This document shows, piece by piece, positions 197-47,331 of a stretch of 47,331 bases of DNA. Below the pieces are notes generated by a model. That model was not told where the DNA came from. It saw only the letters and a program-made list of their open reading frames with translations, and did no database searches. Made by a program: the position numbers and the translations under genes. This DNA comes from Nitrospirota bacterium (GTDB lineage: Bacteria > Nitrospirota > Nitrospiria > Nitrospirales > NS-4), in assembly GCA_005877565.1 (NCBI GenBank), contig VBOK01000077.1, positions 1 to 47,331 on the forward strand, given 5' to 3'. Positions within the stretch are counted from its first letter, which is position 1, and each line of letters begins with the position of its first letter.

Positions 197-574
197 TCAG
201 GACTGGGAGTCTGCCCTCAGCAGTTCTCGCACTTTACTGACAAGGGACTCGATGGGGAAGGGCTTTTGGAGAAAGTTTGCCATGTCGGGATCCCGAAGCT
301 TCTCGCGGACGACCTCAAGCGGGTAACCGGAGATGTAGAGCACTTTCATGTGCGGGCGCGACGATGTCACCATGGAGGCCAATTCGCGCCCGTTAATCCC
401 AGGCATCATGACATCCGCGACCATCAAATGGATGGGGCCTTCATGCCGTCTGGCCATCAGGAGCGCCTCGCTGTTGACACGGGCCACCAAGACGGTGTAC
501 CCCTGCTGTTCGAGACTCTCCCGAAGCACTGCCCGGACCGACTCATCGTCGTCCACAAGCAGAATGGTCTCCAT
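197..574 (-). CDS. single-domain response regulator (CheY-like receiver)
   Basis: METILLVDDDESVR...MVADVMMPGINGREL...KVLYISGY...FLQKPF carries the receiver DD / D / K signature. ATG at 574 has an AAGGA Shine-Dalgarno about 11 nt upstream. The longer track ORF (to 628) has none. Confidence 0.85.
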   Translation of the reverse strand: METILLVDDDESVRAVLRESLEQQGYTVLVARVNSEALLMARRHEGPIHLMVADVMMPGINGRELASMVTSSRPHMKVLYISGYPLEVVREKLRDPDMANFLQKPFPIESLVSKVRELLRADSQS

Positions 575-12423: not shown

Positions 12424-12482
12424 GCGAACAACTGAGATGCTTCGCTTCGCTCAGCATGACAAGCGAAGGGCTCAGAATGACC
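12373..12482. repeat. cluster of REP-like palindromic units (forward units followed by two inverted units)
   Basis: GTCACCCTGAGCAGCGCGAAGGGTC and GTCCTGAGCGAAC are followed by inverted GCTTCGCTTCGCTCAGCATGAC and AAGCGAAGGGCTCAGAATGAC. The same unit recurs at 35901-35912, 38286-38310 and 44118-44188. Confidence 0.8.
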
Positions 12483-35855: not shown

Positions 35856-35901
35856 GTACACCTTACAAAACGATGGGTAAAGGGGACGGGCTCCATTTCC
35901 G

Positions 35902-35944
35902 TTCAGCATGACAAGGTAAGACGAAATGGACTTCGTTGATCAGA
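35902..35944 (+). repeat. left direct repeat: copy of the obg upstream region plus the first 6 codons
   Basis: TTCAGCATGACAAG-GTAAGACG-AAATGGACTTCGTTGATCAGA matches 38300-38360 at 37 of 43 positions, with one 18-nt indel. The ATG at 35926 opens an 18-codon remnant, MDFVDQKDRKRAERQKKD. Confidence 0.75.
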
Positions 35945-36014: not shown

Positions 36015-37067
36015 ATGCTTGAAAATTGGTTCTCTAAAAATCCTTCCAACCGACCTAAGCCCCTAGATCAGCACGGGGGGCTGTCGAATATCATCGATAG
36101 AATAAAGGATCAATTCGAGCGCATCATCCATTCAGATCACATCAAATTTCTCTCCCAACTTTCTGTTGGCTACTACATCGTGCTAATCGGTGTTACCGGA
36201 ATACTTTTATACACTGGATATCGCCTCGGACAATCGGGCAATCGGGCTTTGCCGACAAGTACTGCTGTTCTCAGTGAAAGTAGCGGAAAGGTCACTAAAC
36301 TTGAAGCGGACTTAAGCTTAGTGAAGAGTGCGCTCCAAGAACGCATCAAGTCATTCGAAGGCTCGTTAAAAGAAAGGGAAGCTCAAATCAAGGAACACGA
36401 AAATGTCATCTCCTCTTTGCGCAATGAGATCAAAGAGCTGCAAAGCAAACTCAGCGCCGAACAAAACAAGAACGCTGAACTATTAATTCAGTCAGGTCCT
36501 TCAGAAACAACGATAAGCGAGTTACAAAAAGCACGATTAAGTCTGCCAAAGCCATTGCGCCACAAAGGCTTCCAAATGCAATTGAGCCCCATCATCTCGC
36601 CAAAGGGATACCTCATCTGGGCGCCTGAACATGTGACGGAAGATGGCTTTTATATAGACGGAACCCATTATGCATTATTCAAATGCCTTCAAAAGATTGC
36701 GCCAATGGATTTGCTAGGGGAAGTGGAACGGAAAAACCTATTTTTCGCAATAACTGTTGGTGATAAGGTTCTTTCACCCGTACCTTACTTATACATGCTT
36801 CCACTCGAAGAGGGTAAACATAAGATAAAGATAGAACCTCTTTCCGGGTCAGCAGAGAATAATTCCAAAGAAACAGTGGTCAAGCTGATGGCAAGGCAAG
36901 TCGAATTTATCGAGATCGATAGTATTGCTGTGCTGAGTGAAGCGGGAGCATTTCGCGTCAAGCTCAAAACATTTGATCAGGAAAGTACTGTCCGGAGGAT
37001 TTCTAAAGTGCTCGAAACCATGCACGTTGATAACGATTGCCTCTTGGAGGTCCTGACAACCAGATAG
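36015..37067 (+). CDS. orphan membrane-anchored coiled-coil protein
   Basis: 350 aa with strongly AT-biased codons. TM helix LSVGYYIVLIGVTGILLYTGY. Heptad-rich region KLEADLSLVKSALQERIKSFEGSLKEREAQIKEHENVISSLRNEIKELQSKL. The C-terminal domain of about 170 aa is unrecognised. Confidence 0.65.
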   Translation: MLENWFSKNPSNRPKPLDQHGGLSNIIDRIKDQFERIIHSDHIKFLSQLSVGYYIVLIGVTGILLYTGYRLGQSGNRALPTSTAVLSESSGKVTKLEADLSLVKSALQERIKSFEGSLKEREAQIKEHENVISSLRNEIKELQSKLSAEQNKNAELLIQSGPSETTISELQKARLSLPKPLRHKGFQMQLSPIISPKGYLIWAPEHVTEDGFYIDGTHYALFKCLQKIAPMDLLGEVERKNLFFAITVGDKVLSPVPYLYMLPLEEGKHKIKIEPLSGSAENNSKETVVKLMARQVEFIEIDSIAVLSEAGAFRVKLKTFDQESTVRRISKVLETMHVDNDCLLEVLTTR

Positions 37068-37123: not shown

Positions 37124-37621
37124 ATGGCTTACAAGAAAATTGTTATGCTGCATGACAAGAACATTGCGCTGGTCGCTCACGACAATAAGAAACTGGACCT
37201 GGTGGAATGGGCCAAATACAACCGCGATCTCTTGGCACACCACAAAGTGTATGCGACAGGTACCACCGGCGAGATCCTGGAACGCGAACTGGGCTTCAAA
37301 ATCACGCGATTTCAAAGCGGTCCCCTGGGCGGGGACCAGCAAATCGGCGCCAAGATCGTCGCCGACGAGATCAATTTTCTCATCTTTTTCTGGGATCCGC
37401 TCGAACCCATGCCGCATGACCCGGATGTCAAGGCCCTCCTGCGCATGGCCGTGGTGTGGAATATCCCCATCGCCTGCAATCGGGCCTCCGCGGATTTCAT
37501 GATCTCCTCCCCCCTCATGGATGGAAAGTATGACCGCCTGATACCTGACTATGAAGGCTATCACACCAGGAAAATAGACAGAGCGAAGGCGCAGGATGAG
37601 GCATCAGGCACCATTTCCTAA
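37124..37621 (+). CDS. mgsA: methylglyoxal synthase
   Basis: IALVAHDNKK, ATGTTG, SGPLGGDQQIGA and DPLEPMPHDPDVKALLR. Confidence 0.85.
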   Translation: MAYKKIVMLHDKNIALVAHDNKKLDLVEWAKYNRDLLAHHKVYATGTTGEILERELGFKITRFQSGPLGGDQQIGAKIVADEINFLIFFWDPLEPMPHDPDVKALLRMAVVWNIPIACNRASADFMISSPLMDGKYDRLIPDYEGYHTRKIDRAKAQDEASGTIS

Positions 37622-37791
37622 AGTAAGATGGTCGATTCGCTTCGCCCTCTCTGGGCGCCTGTTCCGTGCCACCCAAGCTGTATCAGGTTAGATACTTGAT
37701 GGCATCTTTTTAGATACGCGCCGCCCTCTCACCGACACTCGCGCGTCGCGCGAACCTCCTGTAATTTCTGACTCGCCAGTTGCTCTGTCTG

Positions 37792-38014
37792 ATGGGCAAA
37801 GTTGTTGCTTACCCGATAGTTCTCCATATGCAGCTCTGTCCAGGGACGGAAGGCAAAGATGACTGTGGCGCCTATCTCCGCAAATGCACGAAGTGCGGCT
37901 CGAAAGGCACAAGCCAAACCATATAGGTGTGGGTACTGTCACCGAGCTACCGGGGCACCTGTTGCTCTTCAAATGCAACGGGTCACCAGCTCAGACGGCT
38001 TCCCTATTTTGTGA
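37792..38014 (+). pseudogene. possible frameshifted small zinc-ribbon ORF
   Basis: Frame 1 reads MGKVVAYPIVLHMQLCPGTEGKDDCGAYLRKCTKCGSKGTSQTI and stops at 37924. The +1 frame continues PYRCGYCHRATGAPVALQMQRVTSSDGFPIL to 38014. Joining them gives CxxC...CxxC. Confidence 0.25.
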
Positions 38015-38163
38015 AAGGATAACGCGCAACGAAGTGAGGACGGTGGGCCGCTAAGCTTGCAGGACCCGCTTCCCTTCCTCGAAATCGCAAGCTCTCTTCA
38101 CCCCTCCGGTTTGCTTTGTCAGTCCTTGGGTTTTATACTGTCTGCACATTTAGTTGGATGAGC

Positions 38164-38280
38164 GGGTGGCGCCGAGCGGGCGCCCGGGCGGAGCGGAAGG
38201 CGCCTGCAACCGAGTCGGCGGGGCTGCGCCGGTGAAAGGCGCATGAGCACGTCTGGGCTGCTCGGCGACAGGACCCGCGA
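38164..38280 (+). repeat. unclassified 117-nt GC-rich structured repeat, copy 1 (candidate ncRNA or mobile-element end)
   Basis: About 87% identical to the reverse complement of 46969-47083. It contains the perfect palindrome CGGGCGCCCG. An 8-10 bp closing helix keeps pairing through two compensatory changes. Confidence 0.8.
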
Positions 38281-38285
38281 ATTGA

Positions 38286-38310
38286 GATTCTTCGCTGCGC
38301 TCAGAATGAC
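38286..38310. repeat. single REP-like unit (inverted orientation)
   Basis: GATTCTTCGCTGCGCTCAGAATGAC is the reverse complement of GTCATTCTGAGCGCAGCGAAGAATC. Confidence 0.75.
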
Positions 38311-38360
38311 AAGAATAGGCGGAATGGCAGGGTAAGACGCTGTGGATTTCGTTGATCAGA
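38300..38360 (+). repeat. right direct repeat (functional obg start region)
   Basis: CTCAGAATGACAAG-[18 nt]-GTAAGACG-CTGTGGATTTCGTTGATCAGA is the partner of 35902-35944. Confidence 0.75.
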
Positions 38361-39367
38361 TCAAAATCTACGTGAAGGCCGGGGACGGCGGGAACGGGTG
38401 CCGGAGCTTCCGCCGGGAGAAACACGTCCCGCACGGTGGCCCCGACGGCGGCGACGGCGGGAACGGCGGCGACGTCATCTTGGAAGCCACGGAGCGCCTG
38501 TCCACCCTGCTCGACCTCCAGTTCCAGCAACACCATGTCGCGAAGGACGGCGACAACGGCGAAGGCTCAAACCGCCACGGCCGCTCCGCGCCGCCGCACA
38601 TCATTCGCGTGCCCGTGGGCACCATCGCGAAGGACGTCGCGACAGACGAGACCCTCGCCGATTTAACCGAGGACGGCCAGCACGCGATCGTGGCGCAGGG
38701 CGGACGCGGTGGACGCGGCAACGCGCATTTCGCCACCCCGACCAATCGCGTACCGACCCGAAGCGATCCCGGCACACCCGGCGAGGAGCGCTGGCTTCAA
38801 CTGGAATTGAAGCTCCTGGCGGACGTCGGTCTGGTGGGCTACCCCAACGCCGGCAAGTCCACTCTGATCGCAGCCATCTCGCACGCGCGCCCCAAGATCG
38901 CTGACTATCCGTTCACGACCCTGGCGCCGAACCTCGGCGTCGTCTCCGTGGACGAGGACCAGAGCTTCGTCGTGGCGGACATCCCGGGCCTCATCGAGGG
39001 CGCCCATGCAGGGAAGGGCCTCGGCTTTCAGTTCCTGCGTCACATCGAGCGCACGTCATATCTCATGTTCCTGGTGGACATCTCTGAGAGCGTGACGGTG
39101 GACCCTGTCGAAAGCCTGCAGACCCTGCGCAAGGAACTGAAGCTGTACAATCCGGATCTTGCCAAGAAGCCGTACGCGGTCGCCGCGACGAAACTCGACA
39201 TCGCGGGTGAAGGGAAGCATCTGAAGAAACTCGAGATGGACTGCAAGAAGCGCCACCTGCGGCTCTTTCCGATCTCGGCCGTCGCCGGCGTCGGCCTGAA
39301 GCCGTTGATCCGCCATCTCGGTTCGCAGGTCGCGAAGCTACGGCAACCCCTGAAAGCGAGTGTGTAA
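38342..39367 (+). CDS. obg: GTPase Obg/CgtA
   Basis: GTG start. MDFVDQIKIYVKAGDGGNG, G1 GYPNAGKST, DIPGLIEGA. Confidence 0.95.
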   Translation: MDFVDQIKIYVKAGDGGNGCRSFRREKHVPHGGPDGGDGGNGGDVILEATERLSTLLDLQFQQHHVAKDGDNGEGSNRHGRSAPPHIIRVPVGTIAKDVATDETLADLTEDGQHAIVAQGGRGGRGNAHFATPTNRVPTRSDPGTPGEERWLQLELKLLADVGLVGYPNAGKSTLIAAISHARPKIADYPFTTLAPNLGVVSVDEDQSFVVADIPGLIEGAHAGKGLGFQFLRHIERTSYLMFLVDISESVTVDPVESLQTLRKELKLYNPDLAKKPYAVAATKLDIAGEGKHLKKLEMDCKKRHLRLFPISAVAGVGLKPLIRHLGSQVAKLRQPLKASV

Positions 39368-44076: not shown

Positions 44077-44117
44077 ACGGGCTGGCCTTTTCCCCCAAAA
44101 TCAGTAACAATGCGCGT

Positions 44118-44188
44118 GTCATTCTGAGCAAAGCGAAGAATCTCATGTGTGAGGCAGTGTCTAGACCCTTCACTTCGTTCAGGGTGAC
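44118..44188. repeat. REP-like inverted pair forming a hairpin
   Basis: GTCATTCTGAGCAAAGCGAAGAATCT - 19 nt - AGACCCTTCACTTCGTTCAGGGTGAC. Confidence 0.8.
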
Positions 44189-45764: not shown

Positions 45765-46784
45765 ATGGACCATCGTGACAATCCGAATGGCGCGTTCCGT
45801 GCTTGGGCCAACAAGGCGATCGCCGGCGAGGCGCTGACCCGTGAAGAAGCGCGGACGGTGTTGCAGACGCCGGACGACCGAGTGCTGGAACTGCTCGACG
45901 CCGCGTACACCGTCCGCCGGCGGTTCTTCGGACGCAGGGTCCGCCTCCAGATGCTCCAGAACGCCAAGAGCGGCGCCTGCCAGGAGGATTGCGGTTACTG
46001 CTCCCAGTCGGCCGTGTCCACGGCGGACATCCGGAAATATGGGCTGCTGAAGAAGTCGCACATGGTCGAGGGCGCGCGGCGGGCGGCGGAGTCCAAGGCC
46101 ATCCGCTACTGCATCGTCATCAGCGGACGCGGCCCGCTCGACCGCGAGCTCGCCGAAATCAGCGAGGCCGTCCGCGAGATCAAGGGCACGGTGCCGGTCC
46201 AGGTCTGCTGCTCTCTGGGCCTGCTCACGGAAAACGACGCGCGCCGGTTAAAGGCAGCAGGCGTGGACCGGATCAACCATAACCTGAACGCGTCTGAGCG
46301 GTTCCACCCGCAGATGGTGACGACCCACACGTATCAGGACCGCCTCACGACGATCCGGAACGCCCGGGCTGCCGGCCTGGAGATCTGCTCGGGTGGCATC
46401 GCGGGCATGGGCGAGACGGACGAGGATCTGATCGACCTGGCGTTCGCGCTGCGCGAAGTACAGCCGGACTCTATCCCGATGAACTTCCTGCATCCGGTCC
46501 CCGGCACGCCGATGCAGGATCGGAACAACCTCACGCCCCAGCGCTGCCTGAAGATCCTGTGTCTGTTCCGCTTCCTGCACCCGCGGACGGAGCTAAGGGT
46601 CGCGGGCGGGCGCGAGTTCAACCTGCGCGCCCTGCAGGCGCTGGCGCTCTACCCTGCCGACTCGCTCTTCGTCGGCGGCTACCTCACGACGCCGGGCATG
46701 CCCGCGCCCGAGGCCTGGCAGATGATCGAGGATCTGGGCTTCGAAGTGGATACCCAAGGAGCCTCGCGGATGATCCCTTCGTAA
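45765..46784 (+). CDS. bioB: biotin synthase (radical SAM)
   Basis: CQEDCGYCSQS is the CxxxCxxC cluster. It is followed by YCIVISGRG. AAGGAG lies 8 nt upstream of ATG 45765. Confidence 0.9.
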   Translation: MDHRDNPNGAFRAWANKAIAGEALTREEARTVLQTPDDRVLELLDAAYTVRRRFFGRRVRLQMLQNAKSGACQEDCGYCSQSAVSTADIRKYGLLKKSHMVEGARRAAESKAIRYCIVISGRGPLDRELAEISEAVREIKGTVPVQVCCSLGLLTENDARRLKAAGVDRINHNLNASERFHPQMVTTHTYQDRLTTIRNARAAGLEICSGGIAGMGETDEDLIDLAFALREVQPDSIPMNFLHPVPGTPMQDRNNLTPQRCLKILCLFRFLHPRTELRVAGGREFNLRALQALALYPADSLFVGGYLTTPGMPAPEAWQMIEDLGFEVDTQGASRMIPS

Positions 46785-46968: not shown

Positions 46969-47083
46969 TCGCGGGTCCTGTCGGCGAACAGCCCTGACGT
47001 GCTCAGATCCTTTCGCCGTCGCAGCCCCGCAGACTCGGCTGTAGGCTCTTCCGCTCCGCCCGGGCGCCCGTTCGCCGCCACCC
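46969..47083 (-). repeat. unclassified GC-rich structured repeat, copy 2 (inverted relative to copy 1)
   Basis: Its reverse complement, GGGTGGCGGCGAACGGGCGCCCGGGCGGAGCGGAAGAGCC...GACAGGACCCGCGA, aligns end to end with 38164-38280. Confidence 0.8.
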
Positions 47084-47206
47084 CTCCGCCACAGTCGACA
47101 TCGGTGCCACTCGCTAGTGCCTACCTTGAAACCCCTGTCCTCATAAGGAAAAAGGACTTCGCTAAATTTCTTTTCACTTCTCTTGCTTTACTGTAATTAC
47201 TATGCT

Positions 47207-47331
47207 ATGCTTCGCCTACTTGAAGAAAAGGAGGAGCGAAACGTGGAACTGACAAGCCAGTTAACGTCCCTAAAGAAGAAAGCTATGAAGAAAATCGGTG
47301 AGGCTGCTGGAGAGCACGATATTTCACGAAT
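47207..47331 (+). CDS. 5' end of a hypothetical, lower-GC, coiled-coil-like ORF (partial, runs off the window)
   Basis: MLRLLEEKEERNVELTSQLTSLKKKAMKKIGEAAGEHDISR... An internal GTG at 47243 is preceded by AAGGAGG. Confidence 0.35.
   Translation, partial: MLRLLEEKEERNVELTSQLTSLKKKAMKKIGEAAGEHDISR

Follow-up and report, generated by a model that had tools for sequence, protein, structure and literature searches.

The stretch of DNA analysed here (the window; 47,331 nt of contig VBOK01000077.1 from a Nitrospirota bacterium) carries a GC-rich element of ∼117 nt twice, once in front of the GTPase gene obg and once, on the opposite strand, beyond the biotin synthase gene bioB. The question that this locus raises is what kind of element this is; the original prediction, made from the two copies, had offered a small structured RNA, a protein-bound DNA hairpin or the conserved end of a mobile element. 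Alignment of positions 38164–38280 (plus strand) with 46969–47083 (minus strand) gave 87.2% identity over 117 columns with two 1-nt gaps, in agreement with what had been described. The 8-bp helix proposed for copy 1, formed by CGCCGAGC (38170–38177) and GCTCGGCG (38260–38267), was also found; copy 2 reads CGGCGAAC and GTTCGCCG at those positions, both substitutions being compensated. When the two window copies were folded together with RNAalifold, the element formed a single unbranched, bulged hairpin of 34 pairs, and a third compensated pair appeared in the apical stem (columns 46/70, A-U to G-C). The given strand had a lower folding energy than its reverse complement in both cases: –68.4 kcal/mol (z = –2.5) versus –53.6 for copy 1, and –54.1 versus –42.1 kcal/mol for copy 2.

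A covariance model of the element scored copy 1 at 108 bits (38162–38278, plus strand) and copy 2 at 124 bits (46969–47083, minus strand, antisense to bioB). The third-best score was 13 bits, far below either, and no further full copy was found in the window with this model. The borders of copy 1 were corrected to lie ∼2 nt farther out at the 5′ side and ∼2 nt shorter at the 3′ side than in the earlier coordinates. A GC on either side of the copy lengthens its terminal helix, the 5′ end reading GC-GGGUGG and the 3′ end GACAGGACCC-GC. Helix P1 joins 38164–38167 to 38273–38276, plus the GC extension, and helix P2 joins 38170–38178 to 38259–38267; the upper stems and the apical hairpin lie inside P2. 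The perfect palindrome CGGGCGCCCG, reported earlier as invariant, is indeed present in both window copies but is not a feature of the family, most relatives reading GGGACCC there. These bases do no more than supply the 5′ strand of a stem, and a role for the palindrome as a functional site was rejected since the family does not conserve it.

That the element is non-coding is borne out by the 1-nt indels that distinguish the copies and by the pairing of their substitutions, which together exclude a protein-coding reading. Opposite copy 1 and the beginning of obg, the minus strand contains an ORF of 128 aa (38150–38536). This reading frame is almost certainly an artefact, of a kind that gene callers may predict where the repeat occurs. 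Nor does the element belong to a known RNA class: Rfam 15 gave no match at gathering score in the whole window, and a local search at E ≤ 10 returned chance matches only (11.7–16.5 bits), which do not correspond to the element, one weak lncRNA match among them overlapping its 3′ half. No tRNA or tmRNA genes were found in the window. An intrinsic terminator was considered and discarded, as neither window copy has a U-tract or terminator-like site, the 3′ flanks reading GCUCUU or GCGA at most. The 117-nt element is real and strongly structured, and it is not a unique small RNA gene.

Additional copies were collected by scanning one genome per GTDB species with a two-block pattern taken from the element, which rendered at least 113 loci (loci from this and the other searches are designated below by L numbers); nhmmer, followed by the covariance model, was used to part true copies from chance matches. 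The wider search advocated in the original prediction thus yielded at least ∼60 full-length copies, 57 of them distinct, among the matches listed, and the two window copies are not chance. The hosts are at least ∼15 metagenome-assembled genomes of Nitrospirales, Nitrospirae or Nitrospiria from soil and groundwater. Nearly all copies among the matches listed come from assemblies so named; the three exceptions are on contigs that had been assigned to other taxa, probably by faulty binning. Often, 2–4 copies occur in one 8-kb locus. The homologues of the window bioB are labelled Nitrospirota or Nitrospirales by their sources, and the window sequence recurs at >99% identity in three ENA soil metagenome contigs. 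Two pattern scans of viral contigs gave six loci, none of which was a family member under the covariance model; plasmid, phage and E. coli collections showed no similarity to the element, and a 21-kb stretch of Candidatus Nitrospira bockiana contained no copy. No description of this hairpin repeat family was found in the searchable literature on Nitrospira/Nitrospirota repeats, REPIN/RAYT systems and MITEs. The family appears to be undescribed so far, though elements of this kind are well known: palindromic repeats that lie between genes, are confined to one lineage and evolve by compensatory change occur in enterobacteria, pseudomonads, neisseriae and others (see also PMC3116915 and PMC6006769).

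The borders of the family are sharp: conservation begins and stops abruptly, and the flanks differ wholly between copies. The 5′ end reads (GA)GC-GGGUGRC and the 3′ end GRCAGGACCC-GC(UC), and all copies have in common a conserved foot, GC-GGGU-GR ... RCAGG-ACCC-GC, composed of the helix GCGGGU/ACCCGC and an asymmetric internal loop in which the two bases GR of the 5′ strand face the five bases RCAGG of the 3′ strand. A K-turn reading of this loop was set aside by eye from the sequence, the required GA/GA tandem being absent. The two arms, GCGGGUGGCGCCGAGC and GCUCGGCGACAGGACCCGC, repeat each other imperfectly in inverted orientation, and the 3-nt asymmetry between them is conserved; the stems above the foot form a variable and covarying stack. 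With its interior folded as one bulged hairpin that does not branch, the element usually measures ∼113 nt, with variants ranging from ∼35 to ∼300 nt. The interior measures ∼35 nt in L025, ∼80 nt of unrelated sequence in L120, L121 and L082, and ∼300 nt in L033; the foot is kept in every interior-length variant. Two blocks, GGAGCGGAAG and UGAGCACGUC, seem invariant but constitute the search pattern, and copies found secondarily in the same loci lack them.

Covariation was assessed in a MAFFT alignment of 54 distinct copies that had not been fitted to any structure. Standard pairs were formed in 95.7% of the pair cells, compared with 84.3 ± 0.5% after shuffling of columns (none of 500 shuffles reached the observed value), and double changes were seen in 185 cells versus 57 in the shuffles, a control that overstates significance because the sequences are related to one another. 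A control in which the pairing partner was slid by 1–3 columns, and the number of independent pair types, are free of this weakness; 33–41% of the slid cells paired, and compensatory change was found in 17 of the 30 pairs. Many of the covarying changes are transversion swaps, for which no wobble intermediate is possible (CG 23 with GC 23; AU 37 with CG 16; CG 39 with GC 10). Two positions are predominantly G-U, namely columns 22/104 (G-U in 32 copies, G-C in 20) and columns 61/69 (U-G in 48 copies), which shows that the structure is kept by selection on the strand reading GGGUGG, be it as RNA or as single-stranded DNA.

Placement relative to genes was counted with a crude gene caller based on ORFs and GC3. 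In 36 cases the element shared its strand with the upstream gene, against 13 in which the two lay on opposite strands; the downstream gene was convergent in 33 and co-directional in 16; by a normal approximation on these rough gene calls, the biases would correspond to p ∼0.001 and ∼0.015, respectively. The commonest arrangement places the element directly after a same-strand stop codon and 0–60 nt from the stop codon of a convergent gene. Copies were also found in 5′ UTRs, in divergent promoter regions and antisense to their neighbours.

In the window, a distance of 62 nt separates copy 1 from the start of the downstream gene obg (38342–39367, plus strand), the first gene of a block with the order obg, proB, proA, nadD, rsfS, lapB, gpmI, bioB. 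A promoter-like TTGCTT-N17-TATACT (38111–38139, plus strand) is found upstream of copy 1; this block is kept in front of obg in the window, L064, L025 and L117, and in a looser form in L118 and L121, and it scored below threshold in a consensus promoter scanner. If it acts as the obg promoter, as its letters suggest, copy 1 would lie in the obg 5′ UTR. At the other end of the block, bioB (45765–46784, plus strand) is convergent with copy 2, which points towards it from the minus strand and has its 3′ end 185 nt beyond the bioB stop codon. The 5′ ends of both window copies face variable low-GC DNA (44–45% GC) and their 3′ ends the conserved obg–bioB block. The DNA beyond copy 2 (47090–47331) has 45% GC, and a plus-strand ORF that opens at ∼47243 (GTG after AAGGAGGAG) runs off the window; the region after bioB is different in each related genome examined.

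The surroundings of copy 1 contain several other repeats. A direct repeat (35900–35944 and 38298–38360) comprises the first six obg codons together with ∼25 nt in front of them; its two units agree at 39 of 45 bases, apart from an insertion of 18 nt (score 47.5, versus 15.4 ± 3.2 for shuffles). These repeats flank a 2.4-kb segment holding a coiled-coil ORF of 350 aa with no family match (36015–37067; 44% GC), the methylglyoxal synthase gene mgsA (37124–37621), two relics of the family (see below), the obg promoter block and copy 1. By its sequence, the segment resembles an island that entered the genome at the obg 5′ end. In L064, mgsA is missing and the 350-aa ORF lies directly against the promoter. 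A second, unrelated short dispersed repeat, TGAGATNCTTCGCTNNGCTCAGNATGACAAG, occurs at 38283–38313 (plus), 12430–12463 (plus) and 44117–44145 (minus); one of its copies sits between copy 1 and the obg start, and is absent there in L064, L025 and L118. A third hairpin repeat family of ∼45 nt, GGGGTCAGGCAC-loop-GAGCCAGACCCC, is often found beside the main element in related genomes (L025:190–235 and 235–260, minus strand; L118:680–720; flanks in L099, L079, L109 and L097), and a half copy of it (GGGGACGGGCTCCATTTCC) is present at 35876–35895 of the window. Compared with window positions 37883–37898, same-strain contigs hold 72 extra bases (L001:770–827 and L002:2141–2198); the difference is bounded by the direct repeat TTCGTGCATT and reflects either a deletion between short repeats in the window or a duplication in the contigs.

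The syntenic obg–bioB block was recovered from six related genomes via bioB homologues. The element is present upstream of obg in the window, L118, L064 and L025, and absent from that position in L117, L120, L121 and L128; downstream of bioB it is present in the window and L128, and absent in L117, L118, L120, L121 and L130. The flank of the L128 copy is homologous to that of copy 2, making this an orthologous occupied site. No clean empty site was found, either by BLAST of flank junctions or at the syntenic loci: the unoccupied alleles carry different sequence, so that the target site is not readable from them. In L117, which has neither element nor leader, the conserved TATACT box lies 7 nt before the obg ATG (L117:2476–2520), an arrangement suggesting that its obg mRNA may be leaderless. 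Between proB and proA, L120 has a fragment of an IS110-family transposase (Pfam Transposase_20; L120:3361–3747) with no hairpin repeat adjoining it.

Orthologous copies persist between genomes that differ at species level. A comparison of the window with L064 gave ∼96% identity for the element itself, 93% for the coding DNA of obg and 89% for the promoter block. The L118 orthologue of the window copy differs from it by compensated changes in the apical stem, and further orthologous copies are kept in L076/L108 and in L066/L104/L033. Orthologous sites may also hold different interiors, as in L097 versus L082, which share the same outer ends, and in L033 versus L026. With 4–6 copies sampled per genome, mean copy identity was 0.80 both within and between assemblies, and the nearest relative of most copies was in another genome, probably as an ortholog. 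An old family passed on mainly by vertical descent would look like this, and such a history suits both an element useful to its host and a slow one of the REPIN type. Signs of recent multiplication within a genome were limited, in this thin per-genome sample, to one assembly with identical paralogs, where three cores at three loci are 99–100% identical.

An additional stem encloses about one quarter of the copies. A small hairpin that resembles REPs, (G)ACCCGTTGCA-loop-(GA)GCAACGGGTNCCCC, stands alone in L075 and surrounds full cores in L080, L083 and L128; in L012, L071, L109 and L033, wrapped cores lie inside larger copies, and the outer copy of L071 is itself wrapped by the small hairpin. 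A composite form consists of a leader, GCGGGTGGCGCCGATGTCGCCGGAGGCGGAG, a core ending in ACCCC and a tail, GCCGCAGGCGACAGGACCCGC (L078, L079, L028, L081, L097 and L118). Directly upstream of copy 2, the window has a 5′ piece of this form, GCGAGTGGCACCGATGTCGACTGTGGCGGAG (47084–47114, minus strand), that matches the leader preceding the cores of L078, L079, L028, L099 and L118. Tandem 3′-end fragments follow some cores (L111 and L004), and the L082 variant occupies the loop of a stem that resembles a terminator and has a U-rich run behind it. Motif search and alignment revealed two relics in the window, both on the minus strand: a small REP-like hairpin (GACCCGTTGCA...GAGCAACAGGTGCCCC) followed by a 3′-terminal family fragment (GGTAGCTCGGTGACAGTACCCA) at 37930–37984, an arrangement also seen in L080, L033 and L075, and a degenerate 5′ fragment, GGGTGGCACGGAACAGGCGCCCAGAGAGGGCGAAG, at 37640–37676, just after mgsA. 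The flanks of a copy pair more strongly with each other than do mismatched flanks (–15.9 versus –12.9 kcal/mol; p = 4e-4). Direct repeats of 3–8 bp did not exceed the mismatched-pair control under any of three border definitions, i.e. no target-site duplication was found; the recurrent GC on both sides may be a helix extension or a 2-bp duplication. Long elements with the same ends were also sought in related DNA, where solo end motifs occurred at about the chance rate (a rough estimate) and none flanked a transposase.

The number of copies, their unrelated flanks and sharp ends, the fragments, nesting and composite forms, the differences in occupancy between genomes, the preference for gene 3′ ends and a one-strand hairpin under selection all lead to the same reading: the element is probably a copy of a lineage-specific family of dispersed intergenic hairpin repeats, of the REP/BIME–REPIN, ERIC and hairpin-MITE kind. 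The possibility raised at the outset that it might prove to be part of an IS or MITE family was roughly right, as the element does belong to a dispersed repeat family, though no annotation of that family was found in the collections searched. The suggestion that it is the conserved end of a larger mobile element gained no support, the unit being complete, with both ends sharp in ∼60 copies.

REPINs are doublets of REP sequences that form hairpins and are mobilised by RAYT (TnpA_REP) transposases. Like REPs, BIMEs and REPINs, the Nitrospirales family is extragenic, lineage-specific and present in many copies per genome as a palindromic repeat with a one-strand hairpin, and REPINs too are hairpins of ∼100 nt with one strand structured. 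Shared as well are the lack of target-site duplication, the mosaic and nested clusters, the long vertical persistence and the preference for gene 3′ ends. In contrast, the Nitrospirales foot has no guide tetranucleotide GT[AG]G or CnGA, the four bases 5′ of GGGU being GAGC, AAGC, TTGC or similar and pairing with the 3′ GC(TC); its arms are not simple inverted copies of a 25–35 nt REP, and it bears the conserved asymmetric loop GR against RCAGG. With ERIC/IRU, the Yersinia repeats, RUP, Correia elements and hairpin MITEs the family has in common that imperfect palindromes of ∼100–130 nt lie in intergenic DNA that is transcribed, that their borders are sharp, that an RNA hairpin is preserved by compensatory changes and that insertion variants differ in length. 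It differs from this group in showing no sequence similarity (no E. coli or plasmid match), in being GC-rich with a conserved foot and a replaceable interior, in lacking TA or other target-site duplications and in having, in the related DNA searched, no parent insertion sequence with the same ends. Of the features that define MITEs, terminal inverted repeats are present, but a target-site duplication of fixed length is not.

The alternative ranked second, and judged rather unlikely, is that of a cis-acting RNA module with a host function, whose copies are old and largely immobile and whose hairpin is kept for its work in the mRNAs that carry it; it could protect 3′ ends from exonucleases, act as a terminator or pause site that needs no U-tract, or present the conserved foot to an RNA-binding protein. 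The bias of the element strand towards the sense of the upstream gene (36 versus 13), the tight fit against stop codons and the strand-specific G-U pairs all speak for such a module, as do the orthologous copies kept across species-level genomes, with the element conserved at least as well as its surroundings, the compensated apical-stem changes between the window and L118 orthologues, and the fact that most copies have their nearest relative in another genome. However, nested copies, tandem 3′-end fragments and truncated relics resemble the debris of a replicating element; moreover, copies also occupy 5′ UTRs, divergent promoter regions and antisense positions, there is no U-tract, and the interior ranges from 35 to 300 nt. 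A role in cis is in any case compatible with mobility, and is hence no bar to the interspersed-repeat reading; the REP elements of E. coli are both mobile and functional.

Two further readings are each let down by features that define the class. Multi-copy sRNA genes of ∼115 nt, each transcribed on its own and with conserved loops acting in trans, would agree with the size, the stable fold and the strong covariation, and copy 2 does lie in a 455-nt intergenic gap without a co-oriented gene. This sRNA reading is nevertheless very improbable: conservation ends exactly at the helix ends, many copies touch or almost touch stop codons, the interior loops are replaceable and copies are nested inside other copies. 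The stand-alone RNA gene of the original prediction likewise gained no support: no promoter or terminator likeness is conserved in the flanks of the copies. We regard as equally far-fetched the idea of structure-specific recombination sites that, like integron attC sites, would delimit gene cassettes open to exchange, despite the resemblance of conserved ends enclosing a folded centre of variable length, structure conserved above sequence and function on one single strand. Such sites would account for the variable low-GC DNA beside both window copies, towards which their 5′ ends are turned while the 3′ ends are turned to the obg–bioB block, and in L063 and L083 copies lie on either side of a gene that, from its N-terminal sequence only, was named M24-peptidase-like. 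Yet all copies end in GGGUGRC and GRCAGGACCC and lack R′′/R′ core sites, with neither RYYYAAC nor GTTRRRY boxes; rather than forming co-oriented cassette arrays, they are of mixed orientation and lie mostly between ordinary housekeeping genes; no integron integrase is encoded nearby or among the called genes of the loci listed; and the two copies of L118 have the same orientation at different sites.

For the favoured interspersed repeat, a mode of propagation can be proposed. The unit would have been duplicated or transposed to give rise to its copies. That the foot is conserved while the interior varies freely suggests a protein that may read the foot on single-stranded nucleic acid, and recognition of the hairpin by a putative protein, the remaining one of the original candidates, is compatible with this conservation. 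Such a trans-acting factor, possibly an HUH/Y1-type or other structure-specific enzyme, would move or copy the unit without target-site duplication, preferentially into hairpin-forming intergenic DNA at gene 3′ ends; given the lack of duplications and the nesting of hairpins, structure-specific single-strand enzymes would fit better than DDE transposases. In ∼450 kb of related DNA, tblastn gave no match to a RAYT-like ORF at E < 1, with an approximate E. coli RayT query that makes a weak probe. Once resident, the unit would be co-transcribed with its neighbour as a very stable RNA hairpin in the UTR, which could buffer mRNA 3′ ends or modulate read-through; copy 1 would thus be a passenger in the obg 5′ UTR and copy 2 a passenger downstream of bioB on the opposite strand. 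More speculatively, and to our mind unlikely, the foot might be the site of a structure-specific enzyme or RNA-binding protein that defines either a new hairpin-targeting, duplication-free mobile element or a new genome-wide UTR module of this Nitrospirales clade.

In practical terms, matches to this family in Nitrospirales should be annotated as an interspersed hairpin repeat, not as sRNA genes or ORFs (e.g. 38150–38536). Interspersed repeats of the REP/ERIC kind are known to break short-read assemblies, and two copies of the family were found at contig ends or beside runs of N (L102 and L025). The family also offers a covariance-rich, naturally replicated data set, with a constant foot and a freely varying interior, in a host lineage that is environmentally important, uncultivated and related to nitrifiers. 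A protein that mobilises or binds it, if found, would carry the REP–RAYT picture beyond the Proteobacteria. Finally, several species have the element in the presumed leader of obg, an essential GTPase gene, while a sister lineage lacks it and has an apparently leaderless obg; the obg leader with and without the element is thus a natural experiment on UTR hairpins.
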